64,000 nucleotides of DNA from Promethearchaeota archaeon (GTDB lineage Archaea; Asgardarchaeota; Thorarchaeia; Thorarchaeales; Thorarchaeaceae): contig JBHLPF010000003.1 of assembly GCA_048939765.1 (NCBI GenBank), forward strand, positions 32,001 to 96,000. Direction: 5' to 3'. Shown here piece by piece: positions 25,475 to 41,757 of this stretch; positions within the stretch are counted from its first letter, which is position 1; each line of letters begins with the position of its first letter. The notes below the pieces were generated by a model that did no database searches, was not told where the DNA came from, and saw only the letters and a program-made list of their open reading frames with translations. Made by a program: the position numbers and the translations under genes.

Positions 25475-26716
25475 CTACTCATAGATCTCCTCTAACCCAT
25501 CCCACTCCAAGCCTAATGCCTCAGCCATTAGAACTGCAAGGTCCTTAACTACCTTACTCGATCCTGCTTGAGGCAGTTGATCATGCATGAAGTCAACACA
25601 TGAAGGGCAAGATGCAGCAACTACTGAAGCACTTGTCTGTTCAATATCGTCCACTTTCAACTTGCTGATCCGGTTGGCAAACTCGGCGTCAATAGCTCGT
25701 AGCACACCGCCCGACCCGCAGCAGAAACAGTTGCTCTTGTTATGCGGCAGCTCCTCGAAAGTCACCCCAGGCAGGTACTCCAAGACCTTTCTAGGCTGTT
25801 CATAGAAACCTGAGTTCCTTCCCGCGTCGCAGCCGTCATGAAATGTCACAGTAATGTCTAGAGGATTGGTGAATTCCAACTTGTTGGCATCAATAAGCTC
25901 CTCAAAATACTCCGGTCCGTAGATGATTTCGAATGGCGGGTCAATGCCAAGGAACTCGTGATATTCATGGGCCCACATCTTATAGCAGCCCGGGCAATTT
26001 GTCATAACTCGTTCCACCCCGAGTTCCTTGTATTTCTCAATATTATGCTCAGCAAATTGACGAGCGGTCTCGAAGTCGCCTGTCATGATCATAGGCGCTC
26101 CACAACAGACTTCATCTTCACCAAGAAATGTGTACGACTCGCCAGCTTTGTCCATGATCAGAGTGGTGGCAATTGTTGCCTGAATGGAGACTCCACGGAA
26201 TGAGGAGGCACACCCGAAGAAGAATGCAGTCTTTGCCTCTTGGCCCATTGTATCTAAAAGGGCGTCTTCATCTGGATGCCAATACGACCATCCCTCGACT
26301 CTATCCATCTGTGACTGTCCCTGAATGTTCTGGCTGTCAAGTAGGGTCTTCTTTGCCATCTCAAGTTGCTCAGGCCAGAGACCCATCTTCTGGAAGTCTG
26401 ACCTCATCAGTTGGTAAATCTGAACAAAAGGAATGTCCACCTGGCAAATCTCTTCGCATCCTCCACAGAGAGTACATCCGAAAACCGCGTCGCGAAGACC
26501 CTCTAGACCTTCCGACGCCTTCAGGCTTCCCTGGGCCAATGAACGGGCAATGATCATCTTCCCTTTTCCTGAGTAGCTATCTCGGCGCTTCACCTTGTAG
26601 GTCGGACAGGCGCCATGGCCAACTTGGCAGAAGCTACATTGCGCACAAGTATATGGCATATCTTGAAGGTTATGCTTCTTCAGTGATGGGAATTCCATGA
26701 TGTCATTCACAACCAT
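25475..26716 (-). CDS. Fe-S oxidoreductase, 2x[4Fe-4S] plus CCG domains, module E (divergent from the FAD-NuoB fusion)
   Basis: CAQCSFCQVGHGACP, CTLCGGCEEIC, CCG, CPGC, HDGC, CCGSGG, CPSC. Confidence 0.9.
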   Translation of the reverse strand: MVVNDIMEFPSLKKHNLQDMPYTCAQCSFCQVGHGACPTYKVKRRDSYSGKGKMIIARSLAQGSLKASEGLEGLRDAVFGCTLCGGCEEICQVDIPFVQIYQLMRSDFQKMGLWPEQLEMAKKTLLDSQNIQGQSQMDRVEGWSYWHPDEDALLDTMGQEAKTAFFFGCASSFRGVSIQATIATTLIMDKAGESYTFLGEDEVCCGAPMIMTGDFETARQFAEHNIEKYKELGVERVMTNCPGCYKMWAHEYHEFLGIDPPFEIIYGPEYFEELIDANKLEFTNPLDITVTFHDGCDAGRNSGFYEQPRKVLEYLPGVTFEELPHNKSNCFCCGSGGVLRAIDAEFANRISKLKVDDIEQTSASVVAASCPSCVDFMHDQLPQAGSSKVVKDLAVLMAEALGLEWDGLEEIYE

Positions 26717-26935
26717 CGGGACACGTGGCTCGACATGTTTTGCCGAACGAGTTATGCCCTGCAACAGCCCTTAATATCTGTGCTCGTTGCACAATGGCAT
26801 AGCTTTCGTCACACTTTAAAACTTGTTAGGTAAGTTGTGTCAAACGCCATTCCCTCCCTCTCTCGCTAGGTTTTTATGGAGCATGATTCCACGACCGTGA
26901 CCTGAGAGCAGCTTCATCTCTTGGAGAGAGTCCAC

Positions 26936-28876
26936 ATGACACTGAAGCCAAAGCTAGTGACGGAACTCGCTGAGGTCTATGAAGACCGAGTGATCACAGA
27001 GAAGCATGAGCTCGTCATCCATGGCATGGATGTTGGTTCTTTGCCCAAACAAGTGGGCTGGTTAATGAACGTCAAGCCTGATGCGATTGTGCAGCCTCAA
27101 ACCCCTGAAGAGATCAGGTTCCTGTACGAGTTTGCAAACAAGTACAAGGTTCCTCTAATACCAAGGGGGGCAGGCACTTCGGGCTATGGTGGTGCAATTC
27201 CTCGAAAGGGAGGCATCATTGTTGACATGCGTGTTATGGACAAGATCGTTGACATCGATGAAGAGAATCTGACTGTCACTGTTGAGCCCGGACTCTCATG
27301 GGCGAATCTGCAATTTGAGCTGAACCGAAAGAACCTAGACCTCCGTTGTTATCCCTCTTCTGGACTCTCTGCAACAATCGGGGGCTGGGTGGCCCAGGGC
27401 GGCGATGGAATTGGGTCTCTCAAGTATGGGAACATCAACAAGAACGTGGTTGCTTTCGAGGTGGTCTTGCCAACTGGAAAGATGATCAAGAGCAAGGACT
27501 GTGACCTGTTCTGTGACACAGAGGGCATTCTTGGAATCATCACTAAGGTGACTCTGAAGATAAAGCCCTTCACTCCTATCAAGGTCATTGTTTCGAGCTT
27601 CCCTGAGAATTATCTGATGGTTCATGCTATAGAGAAGATACTCGAAGATGGTCCTCTTCCATTCACGATAAAGTTCGAAGAAGCAAAGTACACAGACCTG
27701 AAGAAGAAGATCTGGGACAGTGAGGAGAAGTTCCCATTCCCGGTTCATCACTGCACGATTATGGTTGCATATGACGGAGATGAGGAGGAGATTGCAGAGG
27801 GCTTCAGAGTTGTAGAAGAAGTCACAAAGATGTACAAGGGAACTGTTTATGATGAGCATGTGTCTACCCACGAATGGAGTGACCGCTTCTACCCAATGAG
27901 AGTCAAGAAAGCTGGTCCTACCCTCGTTGTTGGCCAAGCATTTGCACCGCTTGAGAACCTAACCGCAATACTTGATGACTGGCAATTTGAACAGGGATCC
28001 GCTAAAGCTGGTATTGATGGCTACGTAAACTCTTTGAATGCTGTCACCATGATGGGCTATTTCCTCGAAGATGAACGGCGCAGATTCTTCATGTTATCCT
28101 GGGCTCAGAGCTTTGTTGTGTTCAAGATTGCACAGCGGCATGGCGGTCATGCTCACTCGACAGGAATCTGGTTCGCCAACCTGGCCGGTCAATACTTTGG
28201 TGCACAGCGACTGGCAAAGATACGTGCAGCCAAGCTTAAGTACGACAAGAAGGAGATATCAAATCCTGGGAAGGTGTTCGCCTATTGGCTACCACTTATT
28301 CTCAAGTTTGGTAAGTATTTCCTCTGGATATTCTATGACCTATTCAGGAATGGGTTTGGCAGGATTGCTCCAATACTTCTGAAGTGGCTCCAGAACCTGC
28401 CGCCACTCAAGTGGGTGCTGCGATGGGGCCGAGCACATAGTCCATGGCCAGTGCAATACGGATTAGGATGTTGCATGGTCGATGGTGCCGCTGGAATCGC
28501 GTCGAGGTGGGACTTTGAACGATTCGGGATGCTCCCCCTCTTTGGCCCGCGGCAGTGTGATGTGCTATGGATATCTGGGTCTCTTACCAAGAAGATGGCT
28601 CCGCGACTGCGAAGAGTCTACGAGATGATGCCAGATCCCAAGTTCGTTATCGCCTTCGGACAGTGCGCGGCCAGTGGCGGCGTCTTTTGGGACGGATACT
28701 CGCTACAGGTTCCGCCTGAGTCTGTAGTACCTGTCGACGTCTATTTGCCCGGGTGTCCTCCGAAGCCTTCAGACTTCGTCAGGGCTCATCTGATACTCCA
28801 GAACAAGATTCGTGCAGGCACGACACACTGGCAAATGAAGTATGAAAACCAGGACGCAATGGGGATGATCCAATGA
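26936..28876 (+). CDS. nuoB: Fusion of a GlcD/VAO-family FAD oxidoreductase and complex I subunit NuoB
   Basis: N-terminal PRGAGTSGYGG, YPSS..ATIGGW, NPGK; C-terminal WP..GLGCC, ERFG, PRQCD..SG, LRRVYEMMPDPK.VIAFGQCAASGG, PVDVYLPGCPP. Confidence 0.93.
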   Translation: MTLKPKLVTELAEVYEDRVITEKHELVIHGMDVGSLPKQVGWLMNVKPDAIVQPQTPEEIRFLYEFANKYKVPLIPRGAGTSGYGGAIPRKGGIIVDMRVMDKIVDIDEENLTVTVEPGLSWANLQFELNRKNLDLRCYPSSGLSATIGGWVAQGGDGIGSLKYGNINKNVVAFEVVLPTGKMIKSKDCDLFCDTEGILGIITKVTLKIKPFTPIKVIVSSFPENYLMVHAIEKILEDGPLPFTIKFEEAKYTDLKKKIWDSEEKFPFPVHHCTIMVAYDGDEEEIAEGFRVVEEVTKMYKGTVYDEHVSTHEWSDRFYPMRVKKAGPTLVVGQAFAPLENLTAILDDWQFEQGSAKAGIDGYVNSLNAVTMMGYFLEDERRRFFMLSWAQSFVVFKIAQRHGGHAHSTGIWFANLAGQYFGAQRLAKIRAAKLKYDKKEISNPGKVFAYWLPLILKFGKYFLWIFYDLFRNGFGRIAPILLKWLQNLPPLKWVLRWGRAHSPWPVQYGLGCCMVDGAAGIASRWDFERFGMLPLFGPRQCDVLWISGSLTKKMAPRLRRVYEMMPDPKFVIAFGQCAASGGVFWDGYSLQVPPESVVPVDVYLPGCPPKPSDFVRAHLILQNKIRAGTTHWQMKYENQDAMGMIQ

Positions 28877-29418
28877 AATTGCGAGAAGACAGCGATCAGT
28901 ACTGCATGCTGCTGATCGGCACAATCATCCTAAGTGCCTATGTCTTTGACATCTTGCTGGCTGTTGTCGCTGATACAGCGATGGCTCTTCACTTTCCGTT
29001 CCTGGTCGGTGGGCCTCTGATCATGGTGTTCTTTCTAATTGGCTACTTCAGGCCAAAGCGCGGCAGGATCAAGGTCAATATGCTCTCTATTGCAATTGTG
29101 ATAGGTGTTCTCTACACAATCTATGTCTTGGTACCATTTGGCGGTGATATCATCTATGCGTCCTGGGGAATGGGAGGCGCAATCCTCCTGGCTGGCGGTT
29201 TCTCAATGTTGGACCCGATGGAGGTCAGTGTGACCCCCGGAATCATGGAGGTCAGCGACTTCAAGTACAAGCCCTTGCCAGAGCCTGAGCCCGAGCCAGA
29301 ACCCGAGGAGGCGGCTGAGGCTGAATCAGAAACGGAAGCCGCCCCTGACACCTCAACTTCAGAAGAGCCAGCTCAAACGGAATCAACTGAAACTACTGAT
29401 GAAACTCCATCAGAATAG
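28873..29418 (+). CDS. Hypothetical 4-TM protein with acidic PE-rich tail
   Basis: ATGA overlap with the fusion gene; four hydrophobic segments; PEPEPEPEP tail. Confidence 0.7.
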   Translation: MKLREDSDQYCMLLIGTIILSAYVFDILLAVVADTAMALHFPFLVGGPLIMVFFLIGYFRPKRGRIKVNMLSIAIVIGVLYTIYVLVPFGGDIIYASWGMGGAILLAGGFSMLDPMEVSVTPGIMEVSDFKYKPLPEPEPEPEPEEAAEAESETEAAPDTSTSEEPAQTESTETTDETPSE

Positions 29419-29513
29419 AGCAGACTGGAACCTGCAATTGTTATCCCCTGAGTCCGCCTAGATTCTTCTAGTCCTGACTAAAATGAGGAGGCTATGGATG
29501 AGAGCGCGGACTC

Positions 29514-29873
29514 TCATTCACGAAGCCAAGCAAACGCAGCAAACGCCAGGAGCAAACCGAAGGCAACCCATGCAAAGAGGAGAATACCTGCTAGGTCAGT
29601 GTACTGGGTGATGTCCAAATATGCGTGCACACCACCAAAGACTCCAGCAGCCATCGTGGCACCTATGCGGCCACTGCGGGTTGATGCGAATGCAATACCA
29701 AGAGTCGCTACTACGAAGAACAGCCCACTCAAGAAGATGAAGTATTGGAAGGTGAGATCAATCGGTGCTACAGTCAAGATGATCCAGAAGTATGCCCCAA
29801 TGAATCCCATTCCGATTAGAAGCGCGAGGTAATAGAAGAATGTACCCTCTTCTTTGTAAGACAATTGTATCAC
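29514..29873 (-). CDS. Hypothetical 4-TM membrane protein
   Basis: Four hydrophobic helices; GGTG upstream; fills the intergenic gap. Confidence 0.65.
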   Translation of the reverse strand: MIQLSYKEEGTFFYYLALLIGMGFIGAYFWIILTVAPIDLTFQYFIFLSGLFFVVATLGIAFASTRSGRIGATMAAGVFGGVHAYLDITQYTDLAGILLFAWVAFGLLLAFAAFAWLRE

Positions 29874-30206: not shown

Positions 30207-30665
30207 TTGCAGACAGATAGGCTGTTTCTCCAATTCATCCCGGTCTTGGTTTGGGCTATTCTTGTAATCGTTCTGATTGTTATCATGCTGTTGGCATCCT
30301 GGGTGCTGCGACCCCATATACTCCAGAACTCAGAGAAGACTTCTACATACGAATGTGGAGAAGAGCCTATTGGGCCAGCACGAATGTCATTCCCCTATAG
30401 CTACATCATCTACACGATTCTCTTTGTCATCATAGACGTAATGGGCGCATTTCTCTGGCTACTTACTGTTTCACCGCTACGATTGAATCCCATAGTCGCT
30501 TGGCAGACGTTCATCTTCGTCGTGATTATTATGGGTGCAATTGGATATGCGCTGAGGTATCTGCCTCAGACTTCGTTTAATGGTAAGGAAATCCTCGAGG
30601 CATATCGCGCTGCAAAGGCAAAGCGTCTCGAGAAAGCGCACGCATCGGGGAGGGAGCATCATTGA
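30207..30665 (+). CDS. nuoA: Complex I-like subunit A
   Basis: 3 TM, EKTSTYECGEEP, ILFVIIDV. Confidence 0.92.
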   Translation: MQTDRLFLQFIPVLVWAILVIVLIVIMLLASWVLRPHILQNSEKTSTYECGEEPIGPARMSFPYSYIIYTILFVIIDVMGAFLWLLTVSPLRLNPIVAWQTFIFVVIIMGAIGYALRYLPQTSFNGKEILEAYRAAKAKRLEKAHASGREHH

Positions 30666-31333
30666 TGCAAGGATTTGAGTCCGCGTTCGAGTCAGTTGAG
30701 TTTCTGTTGATTGCAGGAATAGTCATTGTACTGGCTTACCTCGCACTGGAACATAGGGAGATTGTGTATGCCGCATTCTTTTTTGGCTTCATGGCGTCGT
30801 TCGTAGCTGGATTCTTCCTTCTATTGGAAGCGCCTTTTGTTGCCGGTATGCAGATTGCGGTGTACACTGGAGGCATAAGTGCGTTAATCATATTCGGCGT
30901 TCTCCTGTTGCCACGAGCACAAGACTCCACACTCGAGGCAATAGAGTCGCCCCACGCCAAGAAAGTTGGCATACTTGTATCCGGCTCCATAATGTTCCTC
31001 TCTGCAATTCTTGCACTGACGTTCCCATGGAACGAAACGATTCCAGAGAGCACAATCGATTCTTCAAACAACGTGGCTCTTCTCGCTGAGTGGTTGTGGG
31101 GAGATCATGGAATCTATGTTCAACTCATCGCACTCATCATTGTGACATCCCTCGTAGGTGTCATCGCGCTCATGAAGATGGATAAGGCAGAGCTGATGAA
31201 AGATGTCGTCGCCGAGTTCGGTATCGAAGCAGCACCAGAACCTGAAGCGCCTGAGCCGGAAGAACCTCCGGAGCCTGAGGAGACCTCTGAGGAAGCTTCT
31301 GAGTCGGAAGTCAGTGAGGAGGTGGCCGACTAA
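30665..31333 (+). CDS. nuoJ: Complex I-like subunit J with acidic tail
   Basis: LEAPFVAGMQIAVYTGGISALIIFGVLL. Confidence 0.9.
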   Translation: MQGFESAFESVEFLLIAGIVIVLAYLALEHREIVYAAFFFGFMASFVAGFFLLLEAPFVAGMQIAVYTGGISALIIFGVLLLPRAQDSTLEAIESPHAKKVGILVSGSIMFLSAILALTFPWNETIPESTIDSSNNVALLAEWLWGDHGIYVQLIALIIVTSLVGVIALMKMDKAELMKDVVAEFGIEAAPEPEAPEPEEPPEPEETSEEASESEVSEEVAD

Positions 31334-31653
31334 TGGTCCCGCTTTCTTGGTATCTTGCTGTTGCATTCATCTTGATAGGCCTTGGTGCCTATGGGATGAT
31401 GGTGAAGAGGAACCTCATCAGAATTCTCATTGGTGCTGAAATCATGGGGAATGGAGTCAGCATCGCTATAGCTGCTTTTGCAGTCTACAGCCCTACCTTT
31501 ACGCTGACAGGACAGGCTCTCATTATTCTCTTGATATCAGTTGCTGCAGCTCACACTGCTCTAGCTCTAGTCTTGATGCTTGCTTACAACAGGCGACATG
31601 GAACAGTGGATCTTGGAAGACCAATCTCACAGGAGGAGAAGCTGGATGTCTGA
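31333..31653 (+). CDS. nuoK: Complex I-like subunit K
   Basis: RNLIRILIGAEIM, VAAAHTALAL, 3 TM. Confidence 0.9.
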   Translation: MVPLSWYLAVAFILIGLGAYGMMVKRNLIRILIGAEIMGNGVSIAIAAFAVYSPTFTLTGQALIILLISVAAAHTALALVLMLAYNRRHGTVDLGRPISQEEKLDV

Positions 31654-32173
31654 AGGTACTCCTATGTCTGCAGCCACATTTGGAAGACAGATTGTCAACA
31701 AGTTTCCTGGCGTTGAATGTACGCCAAAGGAAGATGGTATCCTTGAGTGCATTGTGCCAGCAGACAGGATTAGGGACGTTGTCGGGATGATTGACGAACA
31801 GATAGAAGATGCCTTTCCAGAGAGCGTCTTTGGAGTTGACCTTCAGGAAGACAAGTATGAAGTCATCTACATATTCTGGTCTCGAACCAATAGGACACTG
31901 TATCACCTTCGTGTTTCACTTGAGGGCACCAATCCCGAGGTGGACACAGTGTGTGACATATTCCCCGGCATGGAGTGGCATGAGAGAGAGACCTGGGAGA
32001 TGTTTGGAATCAACTTCAAGGGCCATCCTGACCTCAGGCTACTTTTGCTTCCTGAGGAGCTGGAAGGGAAGTATCCTCTTAGAAAGAGCTTCGTGACAGA
32101 TAGATCACGGCTCAATGAGGCTGATAAAACGCCTCCAAAGCCCAAGCCACCAGAAGGAGGTGCAACCGAATGA
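31646..32173 (+). CDS. nuoC: Complex I-like subunit C
   Basis: WHERETWEMFGINFKGHPDLR..YPLRK; AGGAGG before ATG 31646. Confidence 0.92.
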   Translation: MSEGTPMSAATFGRQIVNKFPGVECTPKEDGILECIVPADRIRDVVGMIDEQIEDAFPESVFGVDLQEDKYEVIYIFWSRTNRTLYHLRVSLEGTNPEVDTVCDIFPGMEWHERETWEMFGINFKGHPDLRLLLLPEELEGKYPLRKSFVTDRSRLNEADKTPPKPKPPEGGATE

Positions 32174-33306
32174 GCCCTGACATCATAGATGAAACAACTG
32201 AAGTCTGGTTTGGGCCACAGCACGTATCCGCGCACGGATGGGCGGCCAAACTGACTCTTGTTGGAGACTTTGTAGTGGAATGTGATCCGAACGCCGGATA
32301 CTTCCATAGATCTGCTGAGAAGTGCTTGGAGTTCCGGAACTTCCAGCAAGGGTCTCTCATCATGGAACGGCTCTGCATGCTTGAGGCATTTCTAGCTGAA
32401 TATCCCTACATCATGGCGGTTGAGAAGATAGCAGGGCTCGAAGTACCTGAACGAGCCAAGGTCATACGTACGATTATGATGGAGGCCAGCCGAATTCATT
32501 CATTGCAGTTCTGGTGGGGTCAATTCTCGGCTGAGCTCGGCTTATTCGCTATGTTGCTGTGGCCGTGGGTTGACCGTGAGTTCTTCCTCGACACTTTCGA
32601 GGAGCTCAGCGGTTCTCGTCATGCTGTTTCTTTCAGCACTCCTGGAGGAATAAGATATGATTTCACTGACAAGGTGCTCAGGAAGCTCGATATTGCCTTG
32701 GAGCGGTTTGAGGATCGGATGCCTATGATGCGAGACATGCTCATGGGTAGTCCTACTTTCAGAGCAAGGACAGAGGGCATTGGTCAGTATACGCTGAAAC
32801 AGGGGCTGAAGTACGGCTTGAGTGGACCACCGATTAAAGCATGTGGTCTACCAATGGACCTACGAAAAGATGCCCCTGACCCGAATCTAGCCTACGATAT
32901 GATCGATTGGGAAGTTCCAATTACAGAGAGCAAGGAGCATCCTGGGGAGAGTGATGCCTACGATAGGATGGTCCAGCGATTCAAAGAGATGGAGACCTCA
33001 GCAGATATAATTCGAAAACTCATTCCATTAATTCCTGAGGGCCCGATTGTTGACCCCAAGGCACGAGCCAAGGCAAACAGACTTCCAGAGGGTGAGGCAT
33101 ACGGTCGTGTCGAAGGAACAAGAGGAATCTCAACTCTCTGGCTTAAGACCACTGAAAAGGCGCAGACTCCATACAGGGCCAAGATACGCGGACCCTGTTT
33201 CAACTCTTACTACTCATTGAAACATCTGGTCCCGGGTGCGAAGTTTGCAGACTTCATTGCCATTTTTGGATCGCTTGATCCATATCCAGGGTGGTGGGAT
33301 CGCTGA
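32170..33306 (+). CDS. nuoD: Complex I-like subunit D (not a [NiFe] large subunit)
   Basis: FGPQHVSAHG, GYFHRSAEK, ERLCMLE, terminal SLDPYPGWWDR. Confidence 0.9.
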   Translation: MSPDIIDETTEVWFGPQHVSAHGWAAKLTLVGDFVVECDPNAGYFHRSAEKCLEFRNFQQGSLIMERLCMLEAFLAEYPYIMAVEKIAGLEVPERAKVIRTIMMEASRIHSLQFWWGQFSAELGLFAMLLWPWVDREFFLDTFEELSGSRHAVSFSTPGGIRYDFTDKVLRKLDIALERFEDRMPMMRDMLMGSPTFRARTEGIGQYTLKQGLKYGLSGPPIKACGLPMDLRKDAPDPNLAYDMIDWEVPITESKEHPGESDAYDRMVQRFKEMETSADIIRKLIPLIPEGPIVDPKARAKANRLPEGEAYGRVEGTRGISTLWLKTTEKAQTPYRAKIRGPCFNSYYSLKHLVPGAKFADFIAIFGSLDPYPGWWDR

Positions 33307-33317
33307 TGGGAGGTGTC

Positions 33318-34451
33318 ATGTTGCAAATAGACTTCTTCGCTTGGCTTCAAGGAATCCCTTCGTGGATCTACGGTGTGATTCAGTGGTTCTTCTACCTTGT
33401 CAGCGGGATATTCTACTGGATATGGGGGATATTCACTTGGATCTGGGCAGCTCTATTTGATGTAGCCAACTTCTTTTTCCTGATTCGAGCAATACTATTC
33501 CCGGGTCTTGTCTTCATCCTCATGACGATTATCTTCGCAGTCTGGTATACTCGCAAGCTCTGGGGTAGAATTCAAGACAGACGAGGTCCTTTCCACCTAG
33601 GGAAATACGGAGGTCTCCAGCTCTTCGCAGACGCAATCAAGCTTGTGGGGAAAGAGACTATCATTCCCGATAAGGCGAGGCGTTGGATGTACAGATTTCT
33701 TCCATCCTTGCTGCTTCTTGTCGTACTCATACCTTTCGCATTCATTCCATGGGATCCAGTATGGTACATCGCTGACCTCTCAGTCAGCCTCGTGCTTGTC
33801 TTTGCATTCTTGACAGCTGTTCCTGTAATTGCGTTGCTGTCCGGATGGATAAGCGGTTCAAAGTACACCCTAATTGGTGGGTTTAGAGCAGCTAACAATC
33901 AGTTCGCTAGCGAGATTCCGCTAATCATCTCATCCGTTGGTCCTGCGATGATTGCTGGGTCTCTTAGCGTAATGGGAATCTCGATGGCTCAGTCTAATAT
34001 CTGGTTCATCTTCCTGCTACCAATCAACTTGGCCACCTTCTTGGTCGCATCTATCGCATCCGTTGGTACATTTCCATTCGATGCCCCAGTTGCTGACTCG
34101 GAGGTCATCTTTGGTTGGAGGACTGAGTTCAGTGGTATTTACTTCACGCTCACTTATTTCGCGGAGTTCGCCGAGCAGGCGCTTTACTCAGCACTCATAG
34201 TTGCACTATTCCTTGGCGGGTTCCAAGGACCAGATTTCTTGCCAGGGAGTGTGATATTCATCATCAAGTTCCTGATCGTATTCTTCTTTTTCGTCGTTGT
34301 GACTTCATCGTTCCATCGACTTAGACAGGACCAGATTGTATACTTCTGCTGGAAGTATCTACTTCCATTGTCAATCCTGAACGTTATGCTTGTGATGTTG
34401 GGAATCGCCAACATACCCCTGCTACAAGCAATTATTGGAATAGGAGGCTAG
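33318..34451 (+). CDS. nuoH: Complex I-like subunit H
   Basis: RKLWGRIQDRRGP, GLQLFADAIKLVGKE, SKYTLIGGFRA, PFD, RLRQDQ; GGAGGTG before ATG 33318. Confidence 0.93.
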   Translation: MLQIDFFAWLQGIPSWIYGVIQWFFYLVSGIFYWIWGIFTWIWAALFDVANFFFLIRAILFPGLVFILMTIIFAVWYTRKLWGRIQDRRGPFHLGKYGGLQLFADAIKLVGKETIIPDKARRWMYRFLPSLLLLVVLIPFAFIPWDPVWYIADLSVSLVLVFAFLTAVPVIALLSGWISGSKYTLIGGFRAANNQFASEIPLIISSVGPAMIAGSLSVMGISMAQSNIWFIFLLPINLATFLVASIASVGTFPFDAPVADSEVIFGWRTEFSGIYFTLTYFAEFAEQALYSALIVALFLGGFQGPDFLPGSVIFIIKFLIVFFFFVVVTSSFHRLRQDQIVYFCWKYLLPLSILNVMLVMLGIANIPLLQAIIGIGG

Positions 34452-34457
34452 AGCAAG

Positions 34458-34889
34458 ATGGGATTCTTCAGAAACCTAGGTGACATATTCCAGATATTGA
34501 GACATATATTCCGTCAAGTGATGTCCCGTCCATTCACGTACTTCTATCCATTCGAGGACAGGGAATATCCCGAGAGGACTCGTGGCAGGCACATTCACGT
34601 GCGAGAGAATTGCACAGCCTGCATGCAGTGTGTACGAGCTTGTCCTGTTGTAGCTATTAGTATCGATAAGAGTGATAAGAAGTTCGAGAAGGACGCAGCC
34701 CTAACCTTTGATTATACAAGGTGTATCTTCTGTGGCTTATGCGTTCAAGCCTGCAGATTTGATGCACTATTTCACACCCAGGTGGTAGATATCAGCGAGG
34801 GAGAGAGGGAGGACTTGGTCTACGGTCCTGACAAGATAGAGACTCTCGATAGAGACCCGCTTGAGTGGCGTGGAAGGAGGTTCCGTTGA
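34458..34889 (+). CDS. nuoI: Complex I-like subunit I, 2x[4Fe-4S]
   Basis: TYFYPFE..RTRGRH, CTACMQCVRACP, CIFCGLCVQAC. Confidence 0.93.
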   Translation: MGFFRNLGDIFQILRHIFRQVMSRPFTYFYPFEDREYPERTRGRHIHVRENCTACMQCVRACPVVAISIDKSDKKFEKDAALTFDYTRCIFCGLCVQACRFDALFHTQVVDISEGEREDLVYGPDKIETLDRDPLEWRGRRFR

Positions 34890-36406
34890 TGCAGCTAGCA
34901 TTCGAGTTCCCATTTATGACCTTGTCCTTACTAGTCCTCTTTATCGGAGGGCTTTTGATCTACCTCTTCCGCGGTCGACTCGAAAAGACGTCTGGAAAAA
35001 TCGCAGTTGGCTTCTCGGCGGTGGGGGCATTGCTAATGGTGCCTCCATTCTACCGCATCCTGGTCGAAGGTGGTCGGGCGGCTGAGAAGGTTTCGTGGTC
35101 AGTTGTGCTCGGAGAGTTCGGTCTCTATTTGGATGAGATTGCCTTCCCAATTACGTTCGCAGTTGTTGTCTTGGGATTCCTTTCAGTCATCTATGCCGTA
35201 GGTTATACTGAGCATACTGAGAACAAGCCCACCTTCTTCGCAAACACACTATTCTTCATAATGGGCATGCAAGGAGTGACGCTTGCCACCAATTTGCTGG
35301 AGTTCTTCATTTTCTGGGAAATCATGCTTGTCCCATCATACTTCCTGATTCTGTTTTGGGGCTTGCCTGAGACCCGAAAACGAACCGCCCTCAAGTTCTG
35401 GCTCTATACACAGGCTGGAGCGGTCTGTATTCTGATCGCCCTAGGACTTTTGTACTTCTTCACAGGCACCTTTGAACTCTACACCATACTAGCAATGGCT
35501 CCTGCCATATGGTCAGACCTCCGACTATTGCAGATTATTTTCATCTTGTTCGCTGCTGGCTTTTTAGTCAAGATGGCAGCTTTCCCTGTGCATTGGTGGT
35601 TGCCTCCAGTTCACGCCGAAGCTCCGACTCCTATCTCAGTTCTGCTATCCGGAGCTATGATTGAGACTGGTGCATATGCTCTCGTCCGTTTCGGAATCAT
35701 AACGCTTGGACCTGCAGCTGCGTCTCTCTCATTCTGGATTGGAGTACTTGGTGTGGCTACGATGTTCTACGGAGGAGCTATGGCGCTCGTCCAGAAAGAC
35801 ATCAAGAGACTGCTAGCCTACTCATCGGTCTCCCAGATGGGCTACGTTTTGTTTGCACTCGGAATGATAACCACAATGGGGGTATCCGGTGGTCTATTCC
35901 ACCTCATCAATCACGCCTTCAGCAAGGGTGTCTTGTTTATGACTGCTGGAGCGGTGATTCATCAGACTCATCTAAGGGACGTCGACAAGATGGGCGGTCT
36001 CTCAAACAAGATGCCCATCACCGCATTTGCCGCGGCTATCGGCGCAATGAGCATCGCAGGGAGCCCCCCTCTCTCTGGATTCGCCAGTGAGTGGATGATG
36101 TTTCTCGGCGGCTTTGACGCCGCTCAGATGGGACCAGGAGGCCTTGCAAGACCTGAGTTCTTCTTCCTGTCCATCTTGGCTGTTTCAAGCTCCATATTGA
36201 GTGCCGGCTACATGCTCCGGTATCTCTGGAAGGTCTTTCTTGGGCCTCATCCAGCTGAACTGGAGGATGTCAAGGAGAGCTCGGACTGGATGACTGCTCC
36301 AATGATCATCCTTGGAGTTCTCATCGTGTTATTTGGAATATTCCCAGGATTGGCACTGGATGTCATAGTTCCTGGCGTAGAAGGAATATCTACCCTGCTT
36401 CCATGA
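34889..36406 (+). CDS. nuoM: Antiporter-like subunit NuoM, copy 1
   Basis: FWEIMLVPSYFLI..WG, KFWLYT, VKMAAFPVHWWLP..HAEAP, AYSSVSQMG, PPLSGFASE. Confidence 0.85.
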   Translation: MQLAFEFPFMTLSLLVLFIGGLLIYLFRGRLEKTSGKIAVGFSAVGALLMVPPFYRILVEGGRAAEKVSWSVVLGEFGLYLDEIAFPITFAVVVLGFLSVIYAVGYTEHTENKPTFFANTLFFIMGMQGVTLATNLLEFFIFWEIMLVPSYFLILFWGLPETRKRTALKFWLYTQAGAVCILIALGLLYFFTGTFELYTILAMAPAIWSDLRLLQIIFILFAAGFLVKMAAFPVHWWLPPVHAEAPTPISVLLSGAMIETGAYALVRFGIITLGPAAASLSFWIGVLGVATMFYGGAMALVQKDIKRLLAYSSVSQMGYVLFALGMITTMGVSGGLFHLINHAFSKGVLFMTAGAVIHQTHLRDVDKMGGLSNKMPITAFAAAIGAMSIAGSPPLSGFASEWMMFLGGFDAAQMGPGGLARPEFFFLSILAVSSSILSAGYMLRYLWKVFLGPHPAELEDVKESSDWMTAPMIILGVLIVLFGIFPGLALDVIVPGVEGISTLLP

Positions 36407-36411
36407 GGTGA

Positions 36412-38736
36412 TTGACAGTGTTGCTAGGACTCCCCTATTGGCTTATCCTCGTAATTCCACTGCTTGGCTCCCTCCTCGTTCCACTTGTTGGAAGGTTCAG
36501 TGAGCGTGCACGAGACTGGACTCCTGCGATCCTAATGGGAATCTCTATGGTCTTCTGCTGGTCGCTGCTGCCTGAAATCGGCCATCCTACTCAGACAACA
36601 AGCTGGATGTGGATTGAAGTTCTAGGGCTCGAATTTGAAGTGCTTCTAGATCCGCTCTCTGTTGTGATGGGCATTCTAGCCAGCACCCTCTGTTTCCTCA
36701 TCTATGTCTATTCAACCGAATATATGGCTCATGAAGGAGACCGTGACCGGTTCTTCTTCCTCATGCTTGCCTTCGGCGGCGGAATGCTCACGCTCGTGCT
36801 CAGCAACAATCTGCTGATCGCATTCATCGGATGGGAGATCATGGGATTCTGCTCCTACGGTTTGATAGGATTCTGGAATGACAAGAGGAACCCTCCCGAG
36901 ACCGACCCGACAGACATTCACTACACAAACCCACTTCTTCAATTCAAGACCGAGGGACAGTATAACACTCACTGCGGGACCAAGGCATTCGTTGTTACCC
37001 GTATCGGTGATGCATTCATGCTTGGTGGAATCCTGATTCTCTTCGTCTTCACCGGCACTTTCTCATTCACCGAGATGGCTGCTGATGCCCAATCTTGGTG
37101 GAGCACCATGGCTGGCATTGGCATGCTAGTGCCTACATTCTTGCTTATCTTCATGGGCGCTATTGGTAAGTCTGGACAGGCACCATTGCAGGTTTGGCTA
37201 CCAGAGGCTATGGCGGGTCCAACAAGCGTATCTGCTCTCATCCACGCTGCAACGATGGTCAAGGCGGGAGTCTATATCACCGCACGATTCCTAGTCACAA
37301 TGGTATCAGCAGCTGGCGGTGAGGGAAATGGAGGAGAACATATTGCTGGTCTACAGGCAATTGGCTTTGAGGCTGCACTGACGTTCTTCATCTTTGTAGC
37401 GATTATAGGCGGCATAACTGCCCTCATGACTGCGACCATGGGAATGGTCTCAAACGAGCTCAAGCAGATACTGGCGTTCTCAACACTCAGCCAGCTTGGA
37501 TACATGATGCTCTCACTAGGTGTGGGTGGCGTTCTTCAGGCCGAGGGACTTCATTTCGGTGATGCATACTTGAGTGGCGTTATGCATGTGATTTCGCATG
37601 GTGCCTTCAAGGCTCTTTTGTTCCTTGCATCAGGAGGAGTCATCCATGCTGTGCATTCGAAGTTCATTACCAAGATGGGGGGTCTCAAGCAACACATGCG
37701 TAAGACCTTCATCGTTATGTGGATTGGTGTTCTCGCTCTTGCAGGCATACCGCCGTTCTCAGGGTTCTGGTCAAAGGACTCTATCATCGAGTATGCCTAT
37801 GAGCTGGCGGTTGAATGGCCGAATCCGTTAGGTTGGATGCTATTCTTCTTTGCAGTCCTAGCAGCCGCCTGCACACTATTTTATAGCCTCCGACTCATGG
37901 GCATCACTTTCTATGGCCCTTCCAAGGAGAGTCACGACCATCACGAGTCACACGGCTCACACGAGAATGAGGAATCCGAAGAACATGAAGAGTTACATTA
38001 TGATGACCTAGATGAGCAAGAAGAATCGCATGATGATGATTCAGAGGAGCATGAAGAACCGCATGACAGCCCCTCTGAAGAGCAGGATCACTCAACTCCT
38101 CATGATCCGGGACCGGCAATGATGGTGCCATTGTATATACTAGCGGCTTTCACAATCATTGCATTCCTCGTCTTCCCATTCGTTCAGAACATTGTGCTTG
38201 AGGAGAGCCACACCTGGGCTGAGAACTTTGCTCACATGATAGAAGTCAAGCTAACCTACCCGGGCATCGTGCCGTTCATGATTACACTTGGCGCACTCGC
38301 TTTGGGTGGAATTCCTGGATATGTGATGTACATCAGGGGTGCAGACACTCCCAACACTTGGGTTCCGGAGAAAGGCTTTCGAAGGAGAGTTCATAATTTC
38401 CTCAAGCACCGATGGTACATCAACGAAATGTACTATGGATTACTAAACCGATTCCTGAGTGCTGCCGAGCGTTACCGAGTGAATGTTGACGATAAGATCA
38501 TCGATGGCATCGACTTCAAGTCCGCTGACACAGGCAAAGGCCTTGCCACCAAATTGAGGTGGTTCGATGACAATGTGGTTGACGGCTTTGCTGAGGGGGT
38601 ATCTACGTACAGTGTTGCCGCTTCAGAGTCTGGCCAATCTGCACAGACTGGTCGAGTCAATGACTACGTTGGAGTGATCATGTTCGGGATTGGGATACTT
38701 GTCATCATTGTTCTTCTGTCGCTGGGGGTGCTCTAG
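36412..38736 (+). CDS. nuoL: Antiporter-like subunit NuoL with His/acidic insert and extended lateral helix
   Basis: GWEIMGFCSY, KAFVVTRIGD, GKSGQAPLQVWLPEAMAGPT.VSALIHAATMVKAG, GFWSKD, WYINEMY..QTG. Confidence 0.93.
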   Translation: MTVLLGLPYWLILVIPLLGSLLVPLVGRFSERARDWTPAILMGISMVFCWSLLPEIGHPTQTTSWMWIEVLGLEFEVLLDPLSVVMGILASTLCFLIYVYSTEYMAHEGDRDRFFFLMLAFGGGMLTLVLSNNLLIAFIGWEIMGFCSYGLIGFWNDKRNPPETDPTDIHYTNPLLQFKTEGQYNTHCGTKAFVVTRIGDAFMLGGILILFVFTGTFSFTEMAADAQSWWSTMAGIGMLVPTFLLIFMGAIGKSGQAPLQVWLPEAMAGPTSVSALIHAATMVKAGVYITARFLVTMVSAAGGEGNGGEHIAGLQAIGFEAALTFFIFVAIIGGITALMTATMGMVSNELKQILAFSTLSQLGYMMLSLGVGGVLQAEGLHFGDAYLSGVMHVISHGAFKALLFLASGGVIHAVHSKFITKMGGLKQHMRKTFIVMWIGVLALAGIPPFSGFWSKDSIIEYAYELAVEWPNPLGWMLFFFAVLAAACTLFYSLRLMGITFYGPSKESHDHHESHGSHENEESEEHEELHYDDLDEQEESHDDDSEEHEEPHDSPSEEQDHSTPHDPGPAMMVPLYILAAFTIIAFLVFPFVQNIVLEESHTWAENFAHMIEVKLTYPGIVPFMITLGALALGGIPGYVMYIRGADTPNTWVPEKGFRRRVHNFLKHRWYINEMYYGLLNRFLSAAERYRVNVDDKIIDGIDFKSADTGKGLATKLRWFDDNVVDGFAEGVSTYSVAASESGQSAQTGRVNDYVGVIMFGIGILVIIVLLSLGVL

Positions 38737-38737
38737 A

Positions 38738-40282
38738 ATGCAGCTAGATCTCATCCAAAATCTTATCGCAATGTTGCCTATGGAAAGCATCCTCCCCTTC
38801 ATGCTTTTCCTACCACTTGTAGCAGCATTCATCGCTTACATCGTTGGAGGCAGAGGAGCTAGAGCAATTACCATTGCCATTACTTTCTTCGAGCTGTTGC
38901 TTTCAATCGTCCTTATTGTCGCCATTTTGCCTAATCCTGGAGCAATGTGGTATGAATGGACATTTACACTCAGTACAGTGCAATTCGCAAGCTGGACCGC
39001 GGTTCTTCAGATATTTCTTGGAGTCGATGGAATCTCAGTTGCTATGGTGTTCCTATCAAACCTCGTAGTCTTCATTGCGGCTCTTAGCTCAAATCATATC
39101 CACAAATCCAGGCACCTGTATTACATGTTCTTCCTGATGCTCCAGACAGGGCTGCTTGGCGTTTTCATGTCATTTGATCTTATCAGCTTCTTCATTTTCT
39201 GGGAGTTGGTCCTGATACCGATGTTCTTCATAATTGGTAGATGGGGAGAAGAGGGATGTGAACATGCAGCTGTCAAATTCTTCATCTATACACATCTTGG
39301 ATCGGCTGTGATGCTGGTCTCATTCATGGCACTGTTCTTCCTGGGACCCGGTACATTCAACATGATTGCTATCAAGGCTGCACCCATTGCAATCAACATC
39401 CAAATTGGTTTTGCTCTGGCTGTCTTTCTGGGTGCTGGCGTCAAGCTCCCAGTGTTTCCCTTGCACAACTGGCTTCCATGGGCCCACGTTAAAGCACCGA
39501 CTCCTGGTTCAGTGATACTCGCTGGGATACTCTTGAAGATGGGAGGATATGGATTCATCAGACTAGGTCTCTGGATGGTCCCGCAGGGATTTGCTCGACT
39601 CAGTATCCCATTCGCTGTCCTCGCGGTCTTCACATGCATCTATGCTGCATTCGTAGCAATGGGCCAGACTGACGTGAAGTCAATGGTCGCCTACACATCG
39701 ATAAACCACATGGCTTGGGTGTTGCTTGGAGTTGCCATTGGAGGATTTGCCATCGGTGGTGGAGCTACGGAAGGTCAGCTCTTCTCAGCTAGTCTTGCAG
39801 TTCAGGGAGCGGTTTTCATGATGGTATCTCATGGGATGATCTCCTCTGTCATGTTCATCCTCGCCGGCCAGCTGAAGTACTCAGCTGGAAGCAGATTGAT
39901 ACCTGATGTCATGGGTCTGATGACAAAGGCTCCTAGGATGTCGGCAGTCTTTATCCTCGCAGTCTTCGCAGCCTTTGGATTGCCCGGAATGAGTGGATTC
40001 ATTGCGGAAGCATTAGTGCTCTTTGGCTCTGTGAATGTCTATATCTGGTCTGGCTTCATTGCGTTCGGCATCTTTGTCACAGTGGGCTATCTCCTCTGGA
40101 CACTGAACCGAATTGTGTTTAGTGACCCTGATTCTGAGAAGGAAGTTACTGAAGCACCATGGAGTGATCTTATTGCGCCAATCTTGATGATGATACCAGT
40201 GATTATCCTTGGGCTCTGGCCAGACCTTGTCCTTAATCTAGTGATACCAATAGTCAATGACATGATAGGGGTGATTCCATGA
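38738..40282 (+). CDS. nuoM: Antiporter-like subunit NuoM, copy 2
   Basis: LGVDGIS, FWELVLIPMFFII..WG, VKLPVFPLHNWLP.AHV.AP..GSVILAGILLKMGGYG, LPG.SGFIAE. Confidence 0.92.
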   Translation: MQLDLIQNLIAMLPMESILPFMLFLPLVAAFIAYIVGGRGARAITIAITFFELLLSIVLIVAILPNPGAMWYEWTFTLSTVQFASWTAVLQIFLGVDGISVAMVFLSNLVVFIAALSSNHIHKSRHLYYMFFLMLQTGLLGVFMSFDLISFFIFWELVLIPMFFIIGRWGEEGCEHAAVKFFIYTHLGSAVMLVSFMALFFLGPGTFNMIAIKAAPIAINIQIGFALAVFLGAGVKLPVFPLHNWLPWAHVKAPTPGSVILAGILLKMGGYGFIRLGLWMVPQGFARLSIPFAVLAVFTCIYAAFVAMGQTDVKSMVAYTSINHMAWVLLGVAIGGFAIGGGATEGQLFSASLAVQGAVFMMVSHGMISSVMFILAGQLKYSAGSRLIPDVMGLMTKAPRMSAVFILAVFAAFGLPGMSGFIAEALVLFGSVNVYIWSGFIAFGIFVTVGYLLWTLNRIVFSDPDSEKEVTEAPWSDLIAPILMMIPVIILGLWPDLVLNLVIPIVNDMIGVIP

Positions 40283-41757
40283 TGCTACAATTCTCAACGA
40301 TAATCGATGCTATCAGCGACATCCTGAGTCCCTTCTTTGCACTTGTCCCGGCGGAGTGGCTGGTATCGCTGCCAGCATTGACACTTATCCTATTCGGAAT
40401 CATTGCACTTATTGTTGGAATGAGAAGAAGTCCATTGGCAGTAAGTTTCATTGGTCTATTCCTTGCGGGTCTTGAGATGATTCTCATCGACCCAGGTTCT
40501 TCATTTGGAGGGCTATTCGTAAGAGACATGTTTGGTGATTTCTTCATCTGGATCATTCTTGTTGTCGCGTTTATTATCTTGCTCTCGTCAACTACATATG
40601 GAGGAAATAGAGGCACATACAACTTTCTCCTCATGATGTCATTTGCTGGCGCAATATGGGTCGTCATGGCGACTGATCTTATTGCCCTGTATCTTGCCTG
40701 GGAATTAATGAGTACTCCAACATACATACTCGTCGCCTTAGGACCTCATCGAGGAGCCATAGACGGAGCAACGAAGTACTTCGTCATGGGACTGGTGTCT
40801 TCAGGCCTTATCGTATTTGGAATCGCACTAGTCTATGGCGCTACAGGTTATACAAGCTTTGCAGCGATAGGCACATTCGTGGCTTCTGTGTGGAGTGCCG
40901 GTTCACCTTCCGCCTATGCAATGCTTCTTGCTATGGTGCTATTCCTGATAGGCTTCGGATTCAAAGTCGGGGTGTTCCCAGGATGGATGTGGGTTCCGGA
41001 TGCATACGCCACCGCCGATGGAAGCGTTACAGGTTATCTCGCCGGCGCGACCAAAAAGACCGGTGTCAGTGCCTTGCTCAGAATACTGCTTGTAGGATTT
41101 GTTGCAGCGCAGTTGGAATGGATGCCTGTGGTTGTGACCATCTCCATCCTTACAATGGTCATTGGAAACATCCTTGCGCTCTCACAACGTAATATCATGA
41201 GAATGTTTGCTTTCTCGTCGATTATGATGATGGGCCTCCTTTTCGTGGGGATAGCTGCAGGGACTGCTTTCGGAGCAGCAGCTGCGATGTTCACTGCGTT
41301 TGCCCATGCTCTCATAAAGACAGGTGCATTCATCCTCGTCTGGGCATTAGCTGTGTCTATTGGAAAAGAAGTCACATATGAAGATCTGAAAGGGCTCAGT
41401 ACCCGTGCTCCGGTTGTGGCCCTACTAATGGCCGTTCTGGTCTTTGCGCTGGCAGGTGCTCCTTTCACAGCAGGATTCTGGTTCAAGTGGTTCCTATTGC
41501 CTGGAGCTGCGGTTGATGCCGGACTTTGGTGGTTGGCAATAATTGCTGTACTGAACTCAGTGTTCGCACTTGGCTATTATCTGAGGATTCTCAGGTATTG
41601 CTACTTCATGGAACCAACAGAAAGCACAATCCTGCGCATACCAACAATTCCTCTTGTCGCAGTGGTACTCGCAGTCGTGGGCACAATAGTAATTGGCATA
41701 TTCCCAGGTCTAATCCTAGACTATGCATCATTAGCAGCTGGAGTCCTCGTCCCATAG
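40279..41757 (+). CDS. nuoN: Antiporter-like subunit NuoN
   Basis: WELMS.P.Y.L, KYFVMG, FKVGVFP..WVPDAY, AGAPFTAGFWFK, YYLR. Confidence 0.9.
   Translation: MMLQFSTIIDAISDILSPFFALVPAEWLVSLPALTLILFGIIALIVGMRRSPLAVSFIGLFLAGLEMILIDPGSSFGGLFVRDMFGDFFIWIILVVAFIILLSSTTYGGNRGTYNFLLMMSFAGAIWVVMATDLIALYLAWELMSTPTYILVALGPHRGAIDGATKYFVMGLVSSGLIVFGIALVYGATGYTSFAAIGTFVASVWSAGSPSAYAMLLAMVLFLIGFGFKVGVFPGWMWVPDAYATADGSVTGYLAGATKKTGVSALLRILLVGFVAAQLEWMPVVVTISILTMVIGNILALSQRNIMRMFAFSSIMMMGLLFVGIAAGTAFGAAAAMFTAFAHALIKTGAFILVWALAVSIGKEVTYEDLKGLSTRAPVVALLMAVLVFALAGAPFTAGFWFKWFLLPGAAVDAGLWWLAIIAVLNSVFALGYYLRILRYCYFMEPTESTILRIPTIPLVAVVLAVVGTIVIGIFPGLILDYASLAAGVLVP

Follow-up and report, generated by a model that had tools for sequence, protein, structure and literature searches.

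Can an archaeal complex I carry a fourth ion-pumping subunit, and what would hold the longer membrane arm together? The question is raised by a nuo operon found in a 64,000-nucleotide stretch of a Promethearchaeota archaeon of the Thorarchaeota (assembly GCA_048939765.1, contig JBHLPF010000003.1, positions 32,001 to 96,000; hereafter the window), in which nuoL stands between two nuoM genes. The matter is of some consequence, as the number of pump modules sets the ions moved per electron pair and, with it, which redox reactions can be driven or reversed. PMC6606698 defines the 2M enzymes by a second NuoM and a lengthened NuoL, and PMC9040806 gives the NuoL insertion as ~26 residues in helix HL (both citing Chadwick et al. 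2018, ISME J 12:2668); according to published proposals, enzymes of this class move one proton more in each cycle and work with ferredoxin. The comparisons described here favour, with a probability that we put at somewhat under 80%, a 2M-type complex-I-like enzyme in which a core devoid of nuoEFG would carry four antiporter-like subunits and an extended NuoL clamp helix. The Thorarchaeota four-pump operon is an addition to the published 2M class and what is new is the lineage; literature searches, which did not cover the data set of Chadwick et al. 2018, found no description of a Thorarchaeota 2M enzyme.

Four antiporter-like genes in one operon

The nuo genes form a single tightly packed operon on the + strand, in which stops and starts abut or overlap throughout, indicating translationally coupled genes. 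According to the list of open reading frames (ORFs) and the Pfam and NCBIfam scans, the operon closes with four Proton_antipo_M genes in the order M1-L-M2-N. These are nuoM1 (34889-36406; PF00361, 2.6e-72; TIGR01972, 316 bits), nuoL (36412-38736; 774 amino acids; PF00662 and PF00361; TIGR01974, 463 bits; NuoL clade), nuoM2 (38738-40282; TIGR01972, 414 bits) and nuoN (40279-41757). The ORF of M1 opens at a GTG at 34865 and its probable start is the ATG at 34889, overlapping the nuoI stop; that of M2 opens at a TTG at 38690, with a probable ATG start at 38738, two bases past the nuoL stop. NuoN has TIGR01770 as its top match, at 281 bits and below the 332.6-bit cut-off, its best PDB matches are NuoN chains and in the tree it falls in the NuoN clade together with Thaumarchaeota and bacterial NuoN. 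A whole-genome scan of the metagenome-assembled genome (MAG), which is 88.5% complete, found no antiporter-like genes beyond these four. The complex I core set (NuoA, B, C, D, H, I, J, K, L, M and N) is complete, with Pfam and NCBIfam matches for each, and none of nuoE, nuoF and nuoG is present in the operon. The layout GlcD::B-X1-A-J-K-C-D-H-I-M1-L-M2-N, in which GlcD::B is a fused NuoB and X1 a small protein (see below), was found in every complete Thorarchaeota locus fetched (22 distinct four-gene loci). The original prediction, made from the letters of the window, had seen two full-length and mutually divergent nuoM genes flanking nuoL in a probable Asgard archaeon. Both points stand: M1 and M2 are 29% identical, the closest database records come from Thorarchaeota MAGs (including one that bears the label Hermodarchaeota) and a Ras-family GTPase gene lies directly downstream of the operon.

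Both M1 and M2 score above the cut-off of the NuoM model TIGR01972. The best PDB matches of M2 are the NuoM chain 8qby_M (231 bits) and E. coli NuoM (211 bits). For M1, TIGR01972 is the best NCBIfam model with the MrpA, HyfB, MrpD and NuoL models close behind, and a best-hit classification was dropped as unreliable given the near-equal scores against NuoM, MrpA, HyfB and NuoL models. Since M1 is ambiguous by score, trees and signature residues were used. We built a FastTree phylogeny of 129 subunits and two IQ-TREE phylogenies (LG+C20) with E. coli NuoL/M/N and HyfB/D/F as references; in the second IQ-TREE phylogeny, Novosphingobium MrpA and MrpD were included as well, along with the green-complex subunits of Rhizobium. 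M1 and M2 are both inside a NuoM superclade (FastTree 99; IQ-TREE Shimodaira-Hasegawa approximate likelihood ratio test, SH-aLRT, 99), and MrpA, MrpD, HyfB/D/F and the Mbh-like subunits are outside it. One part of the superclade contains E. coli and Rhizobium NuoM, the Thorarchaeota M2 and the M2 of other four- and five-pump clusters. The other part contains the Thorarchaeota M1 together with the single M of Thaumarchaeota, Odinarchaeota, other Asgard, Caldarchaeales and Bathyarchaeia clusters. Forcing the M1-type sequences together with MrpD lowered the log-likelihood by 46 units and was rejected by the approximately unbiased (AU) test (p 0.003); a grouping of M1 with MrpD or HyfB, an outcome that the original prediction had considered, was not recovered. 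Furthermore, in transmembrane helix (TM) 12 M1 and M2 have the Glu that is the signature of NuoM (E407 in E. coli), at a position where L and N have Lys, and the TM5 Glu and TM7 Lys are kept in all four subunits.

By phylogeny and signature residues, M1 can be identified as the ordinary archaeal NuoM and M2 as the subunit added relative to the archaeal three-pump enzymes, a NuoM of bacterial type. The location of M1 upstream of nuoL is the archaeal convention, because in Thaumarchaeota (order K-M-L-N) the single nuoM is likewise found upstream of nuoL. Hence the order M-L-M-N, at first taken as unusual, does not reflect a peculiarity of the added subunit.

The lateral helix of NuoL

The lateral helix HL of NuoL (38377-38643, + strand; residues 656-744 by AlphaFold2, AF2, secondary structure) is followed by the TM16 anchor (38653-38721, + strand; residues 748-770, also an AF2 helix). 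Along HL one short motif appears twice, as DDKIIDG (38488-38508, + strand; residues 693-699; GAC GAT AAG ATC ATC GAT GGC) and as DDNVVDG (38566-38586, + strand; residues 719-725; GAT GAC AAT GTG GTT GAC GGC), with starts exactly 78 nucleotides or 26 codons apart, just as it had been reported. From residue frequencies, we estimated at p ~1e-5 the chance of a second DD[KN][IV][IV]DG match in one protein of 774 amino acids. In pairwise HMMER comparisons the first copy aligns to VDYNVVDG of the cyanobacterial NdhF 6hum_F and the second to VDDKAVDG of the Mycobacterium NuoL 8e9g_L, and these alignments to solved structures show both to be versions of a single canonical motif. Copy 1 corresponds to the lone [ED]xxxID motif of three-pump archaeal NuoL proteins, and copy 2 heads a 26-residue module that these proteins lack; in the MAFFT alignment E. 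coli and all three-pump archaeal NuoL have a 27-column gap at copy 2. The spacing of 26-27 residues between the motifs is kept in all the Thorarchaeota orthologues and in other lineages.

To size the extension, helix length was counted between two conserved anchors, starting with the W of RWYIN and ending with the G of QTG (W668 to G747 in the window), and was measured in 85 distinct NuoL from related genomes, the NuoL of the window and that of E. coli. The helix of the window is 80 residues long. E. coli, with three pump genes, has 51 residues, and the three-pump clusters of Thaumarchaeota (K-M-L-N) and Asgard archaea (K-L-M-N, including a second cluster of some Thorarchaeota) have 53-56. The 51-56 class comprises 44 distinct archaeal NuoL, 31 from complete three-pump clusters and 13 from loci with two pump genes showing. 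All 31 distinct NuoL of the Thorarchaeota M1-L-M2-N clusters, with four pump genes, have 80-81 residues, and so does the four-pump cluster of G025, a genome from another family of the same taxonomic order. Thus, a net extension of 26 residues accompanies the fourth subunit in the Thorarchaeota and G025. One further step is seen in the Promethearchaeota MAG H2M.163 (L143, 8442-16574), where a K-M-M-L-M-N cluster with five antiporter-like genes encodes a NuoL helix of 108 residues holding three motif modules, so that in the sampled loci the steps of ~55, 80 and 108 residues parallel three, four and five genes. This cluster is a candidate six-channel enzyme; Ca. Borrarchaeum weybense (L121) provides a further, partial instance. 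Two other loci from Promethearchaeota MAGs (L111 and L112) depart from this series, with helices of 82 residues and two pump genes visible per locus. One NuoL (L066, from G002, contig C12) was counted neither way, its nominal 80-residue helix resting on a doubtful alignment and ending in VEG, not QTG.

The NuoL proteins with an extended helix do not form one clade. Those of Thorarchaeota and G025 are found together, that of G035 beside Thaumarchaeota and that of L143 beside Caldarchaeales. Therefore the extension was gained, or passed on by transfer, on several occasions, and in every case an M2-type gene lies next to it.

The original prediction had called the module a 26-codon duplication matching the second nuoM. 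Of this, the gain in length is confirmed, as the window has 80 residues where E. coli has 51 and its three-pump archaeal relatives have 53-56, and the duplication is unproven. No direct repeat was detected at the DNA level in 38300-38740, the likeness between the two 26-residue units is limited to the 7-residue motif and the comparison of their profiles was weak (hhalign E 0.015, 25 orthologues). In the distant relative G039 (L063), 8 of the first 10 residues of the two units are shared, in keeping with such a duplication. An old tandem duplication is a plausible origin of the two units, not provable from this gene.

In the AF2 model of NuoL (mean pLDDT, predicted local distance difference test, 78.5; 38-sequence alignment) the helices run over residues 656-722 and 724-744, almost unbroken, and then over 748-770. 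Two other regions of the protein deserve mention. Between TM14 and TM15 there is a loop of ~60 residues rich in Asp, Glu and His (residues ~505-566, 37924-38109), disordered in AF2 (pLDDT 33-40), whose composition is kept across the Thorarchaeota family while its sequence varies. By the topology of NuoL this loop should face outward, and therefore it may bind metal ions. In addition, a family-specific insertion of ~30 residues, KRNPPE...NPLLQFKTEGQYNTHCGT (residues ~157-187, 36880-36970), is conserved in the Thorarchaeota orthologues and interrupts the match of NuoL to Pfam Proton_antipo_M, which therefore comes in two parts.

A proposed four-pump arm and its alternatives

In the enzyme that we propose, the membrane arm would consist of NuoN, two NuoM-family subunits and NuoL, mounted on a core of A, GlcD-like::B, C, D, H, I, J and K; the four pump subunits alone amount to about 2,300 residues. 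M2 is a NuoM of bacterial type whose gene was inserted between those of NuoL and NuoN, and the lateral helix of NuoL exceeds that of three-pump enzymes by one 26-residue module. An alpha-helix of 26 residues spans ~39 Å, roughly the width of one antiporter-like subunit, so the helix with its TM16 anchor could still clamp the whole arm. In M1 as in M2, the charged residues typical of a functional channel are retained on TM5, TM7 and TM12, and one more ion per turnover than in a three-pump enzyme would be expected for that reason. The gene content, the family of each subunit and the lengthening of the helix are established, as is its association with the fourth gene in the Thorarchaeota and G025. 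What had been called a structurally integrated 2M complex is well supported by comparison, and from sequence we infer the physical assembly, the subunit order N-M2-M1-L and the ion stoichiometry.

Within one genus, M1 and L have been swapped together. The locus L041 of G002 (G002:C63, same genus) has 91-97% nucleotide identity to the window in nuoC-nuoI, and again from ~39286 on, through M2 and nuoN to the Ras gene; over 34847-~38985 (M1, L and the start of M2) the identity is 60-76%. This mosaic indicates exchange of the M1-L pair by recombination. The joint exchange fits, if weakly, with M1 and L being co-adapted neighbours and with the order N-M2-M1-L.

Several observations weigh against the four-pump reading, concerning either the helix or M1. 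The rule that a longer helix goes with an extra pump is not strict, and there are exceptions among more distant archaea. In G039 (L063, G039:C47), a MAG that is 89% complete, the helix reaches 81 residues although the entire MAG has no more than three antiporter-like genes. A cluster of G035 (C25, L057) has a 108-residue helix and four genes, and among Bathyarchaeia L106 and L110 reach 115 residues while just three antiporter-like genes lie in the vicinity. A further Bathyarchaeia locus (L109, 5176-13098) has two tandem NuoL-like genes with helix regions of 81 and 141 residues; overall, the Bathyarchaeia helices of 115 and 141 residues come with three or four genes. Within the Thorarchaeota family no single-M relative was found and every complete locus has both features, therefore the association there is one inherited state and not many independent events. 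The expected co-occurrence of the extension and a second nuoM holds in all the Thorarchaeota loci, in G025 and, with five pumps, in L143, and breaks down in G039, G035 and Bathyarchaeia. Moreover, the AF2 confidence is low (pLDDT < 50) over residues 707-750, including the inserted module, although this is expected because a clamp helix was modelled without its partners. As a separate observation, the G039 locus has a 1-kb gap between nuoL and nuoM.

These exceptions suit an arm in which the extra module holds no pump, one M being located elsewhere (for instance distal to NuoL) or assembled in some alternative way and the 26 residues docking a small accessory protein or a lipid-facing element. 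The operon does encode a conserved small membrane protein, X1, and the M1 gene lies ahead of nuoL. The latter is uninformative about position, however, as the sole M of Thaumarchaeota also precedes nuoL. The parallel between helix length and gene number in the sampled loci, and the occurrence of extended NuoL in separate places of the tree, accompanied in every cluster by an M2-type gene, also speak against a module without a pump, which we consider quite unlikely. The observations on M1 bear on two other explanations. M1 lacks the TM8 Lys that M2 has, with a Glu in its place as in the Odinarchaeota and G025 orthologues. This difference in the central residue, the low identity between M1 and M2 and the exchange of M1-L as a cassette would be compatible with the two M being alternatives rather than partners, in three-pump enzymes assembled with one or the other, e.g. 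according to conditions. Nevertheless, translational coupling links all the genes of the operon, both M genes are kept in every complete Thorarchaeota locus and for an arm of three pumps the helix has one module in excess, making such alternation very improbable. Finally, the best PDB matches of M1 are MbhH (199.5 bits) and MrpA (199.2), ahead of E. coli NuoM (172.6), and M1 has a weak Proton_antipo_N match, as might a leftover subunit of an Mrp- or Mbh-type antiporter that works alone or in another complex and is merely co-located here. We give this hardly any credence. M1 belongs to the NuoM superclade, the AU test rejects a clade with MrpD, the TM12 Glu is that of NuoM and in archaeal complexes with three pumps an orthologue of M1 is the only M; besides, with no other antiporter-like gene found in the genome there is no Mrp- or Mbh-type cluster built on one.

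Known relatives, redox partners and accompanying genes

Like the 2M complex I, the enzyme of the window has a second NuoM-family gene in the nuo cluster and a NuoL helix ~26 residues longer. The absence of nuoE and nuoF from the operon is also a feature of the 2M operons of Nitrospira clade 3 (PMC6606698). It differs from the 2M enzymes in lineage, in the gene order M-L-M-N, in the fusion of NuoB to a GlcD-like flavoprotein and in a NuoD without the quinone tyrosine, and its M pair, in which one subunit is archaeal-type and the other bacterial-type, consists of deep paralogues and did not arise by recent tandem duplication. The four-pump design, built from these two kinds of NuoM, is fixed across a whole Asgard family and provides an archaeal case for a class known mainly from bacteria. 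The Thaumarchaeota complex I (nuoABCDHIJK-M-L-N) shares with it the absence of nuoEFG, an M1-type NuoM directly upstream of nuoL and related L and N subunits. However, the Thaumarchaeota loci examined have three antiporter-like genes per cluster and a helix of 55-56 residues, with neither an M2-type gene in the cluster nor a NuoB fusion. A duplicated M has been described in ammonia-oxidising archaea in a preprint (10.1101/2021.05.03.442362); unlike in that work, none was found in the Thaumarchaeota clusters that we examined.

Four ion-pumping subunits within a complex I operon are also found in the green complex I of Rhizobiaceae, in which two MrpD-like subunits replace NuoL (PMC9040806) and which we found at locus L153. 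There the extra unit is MrpD-like and NuoL is replaced, whereas in the window the extra unit belongs to the NuoM family and a genuine NuoL is kept, with Proton_antipo_N, lateral helix and TM16. The Fpo-like or 11-subunit ferredoxin-dependent enzymes proposed for Asgard lineages (PMC9723677) have a similar core without the NADH module, but with three pumps and a helix of normal length, in contrast to the four pumps, flavoprotein-fused NuoB and atypical NuoD site found here.

The redox side of the enzyme is also peculiar. The only NuoB of the operon is part of a fusion (26921-28876, + strand; PF01565, PF02913, PF01058), located behind a FAD (flavin adenine dinucleotide) domain of the GlcD/VAO type and connected to it by a hydrophobic linker. 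In the NuoB part NF005012 matches residues 498-635 and the cluster N2 motif CC...C...C is present. The fusion is kept across the Thorarchaeota loci; NuoB is free in G025, G035 and Thaumarchaeota. NuoD has the complex-I-type GPQHVSAHG loop and lacks the NiFe cysteines of hydrogenases. At the position of the quinone-binding tyrosine of RxDY it reads ERLCM, so the tyrosine is absent and, on this basis, the use of quinone by NuoD appears doubtful. The C-terminus of the protein reads DPYPGWWDR. Neither MqnA/D, MqnC nor a haem-copper oxidase was found in the 88.5% complete MAG, and MenB had no match above the cut-off there. The reverse electron transport from menaquinol that the original prediction had derived from the extra pump does not agree with these negative results or with the ERLCM of NuoD.

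For Asgard complex-I-like enzymes without the NADH module, ferredoxin is the donor usually proposed (PMC9723677). Here too the redox partner at the cytoplasmic side is probably ferredoxin, by analogy. By textbook potentials, when ferredoxin reduces a carrier at around -75 mV, each electron pair releases roughly 70-80 kJ, which suffices for about five ions at 150-180 mV; the energy from NADH to menaquinone is insufficient for about five ions. Forward running and the gradient-driven making of reduced ferredoxin are both conceivable directions. A bolder proposal would take the archaeal helix module of 26-27 residues as a ruler for arms of three, four, five or more pumps, with helix lengths in the sampled archaea of about 55, 80, 108 and up to 141 residues. 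In the same proposal the Thorarchaeota enzyme would not be a quinone reductase, and the proton-motive force (pmf) would drive electrons from the NuoB-fused flavoprotein uphill to ferredoxin, or the reverse would take place. We regard this as rather unlikely; if true, the pmf-driven operation would explain an extra pump in an anaerobe with no detectable quinone pathway. The natural three-, four- and five-pump relatives form a defined set for testing the idea of the helix as a ruler, and the redox chemistry suggested by the NuoB-flavoprotein fusion, the atypical NuoD and the lack of a detected quinone pathway matters for models of Asgard energy metabolism.

The remaining genes of the operon, all on the + strand and assigned by Pfam, are nuoA (30207-30665), nuoJ (30662-31333), nuoK (31333-31653), nuoC (31580-32173), nuoD (32170-33306), nuoH (33291-34451) and nuoI (34458-34889). 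Between GlcD::nuoB and nuoA there is X1 (28873-29418, + strand), with no family hit, which has hydrophobic membrane-like segments and a long acidic tail rich in Pro and Glu. X1 is conserved at this location in almost every Thorarchaeota locus and is a possible accessory subunit. A second ORF at 29494-29832 (X2) looks spurious, being basic and of low complexity with a homologue in no relative. On the opposite strand, a CCG/4Fe-4S protein similar to HdrD/GlcF/TfrB (25475-26764, - strand) is the divergent neighbour of GlcD::nuoB. It is conserved next to the fusion gene in many Thorarchaeota loci and may be a partner of the flavoprotein module.

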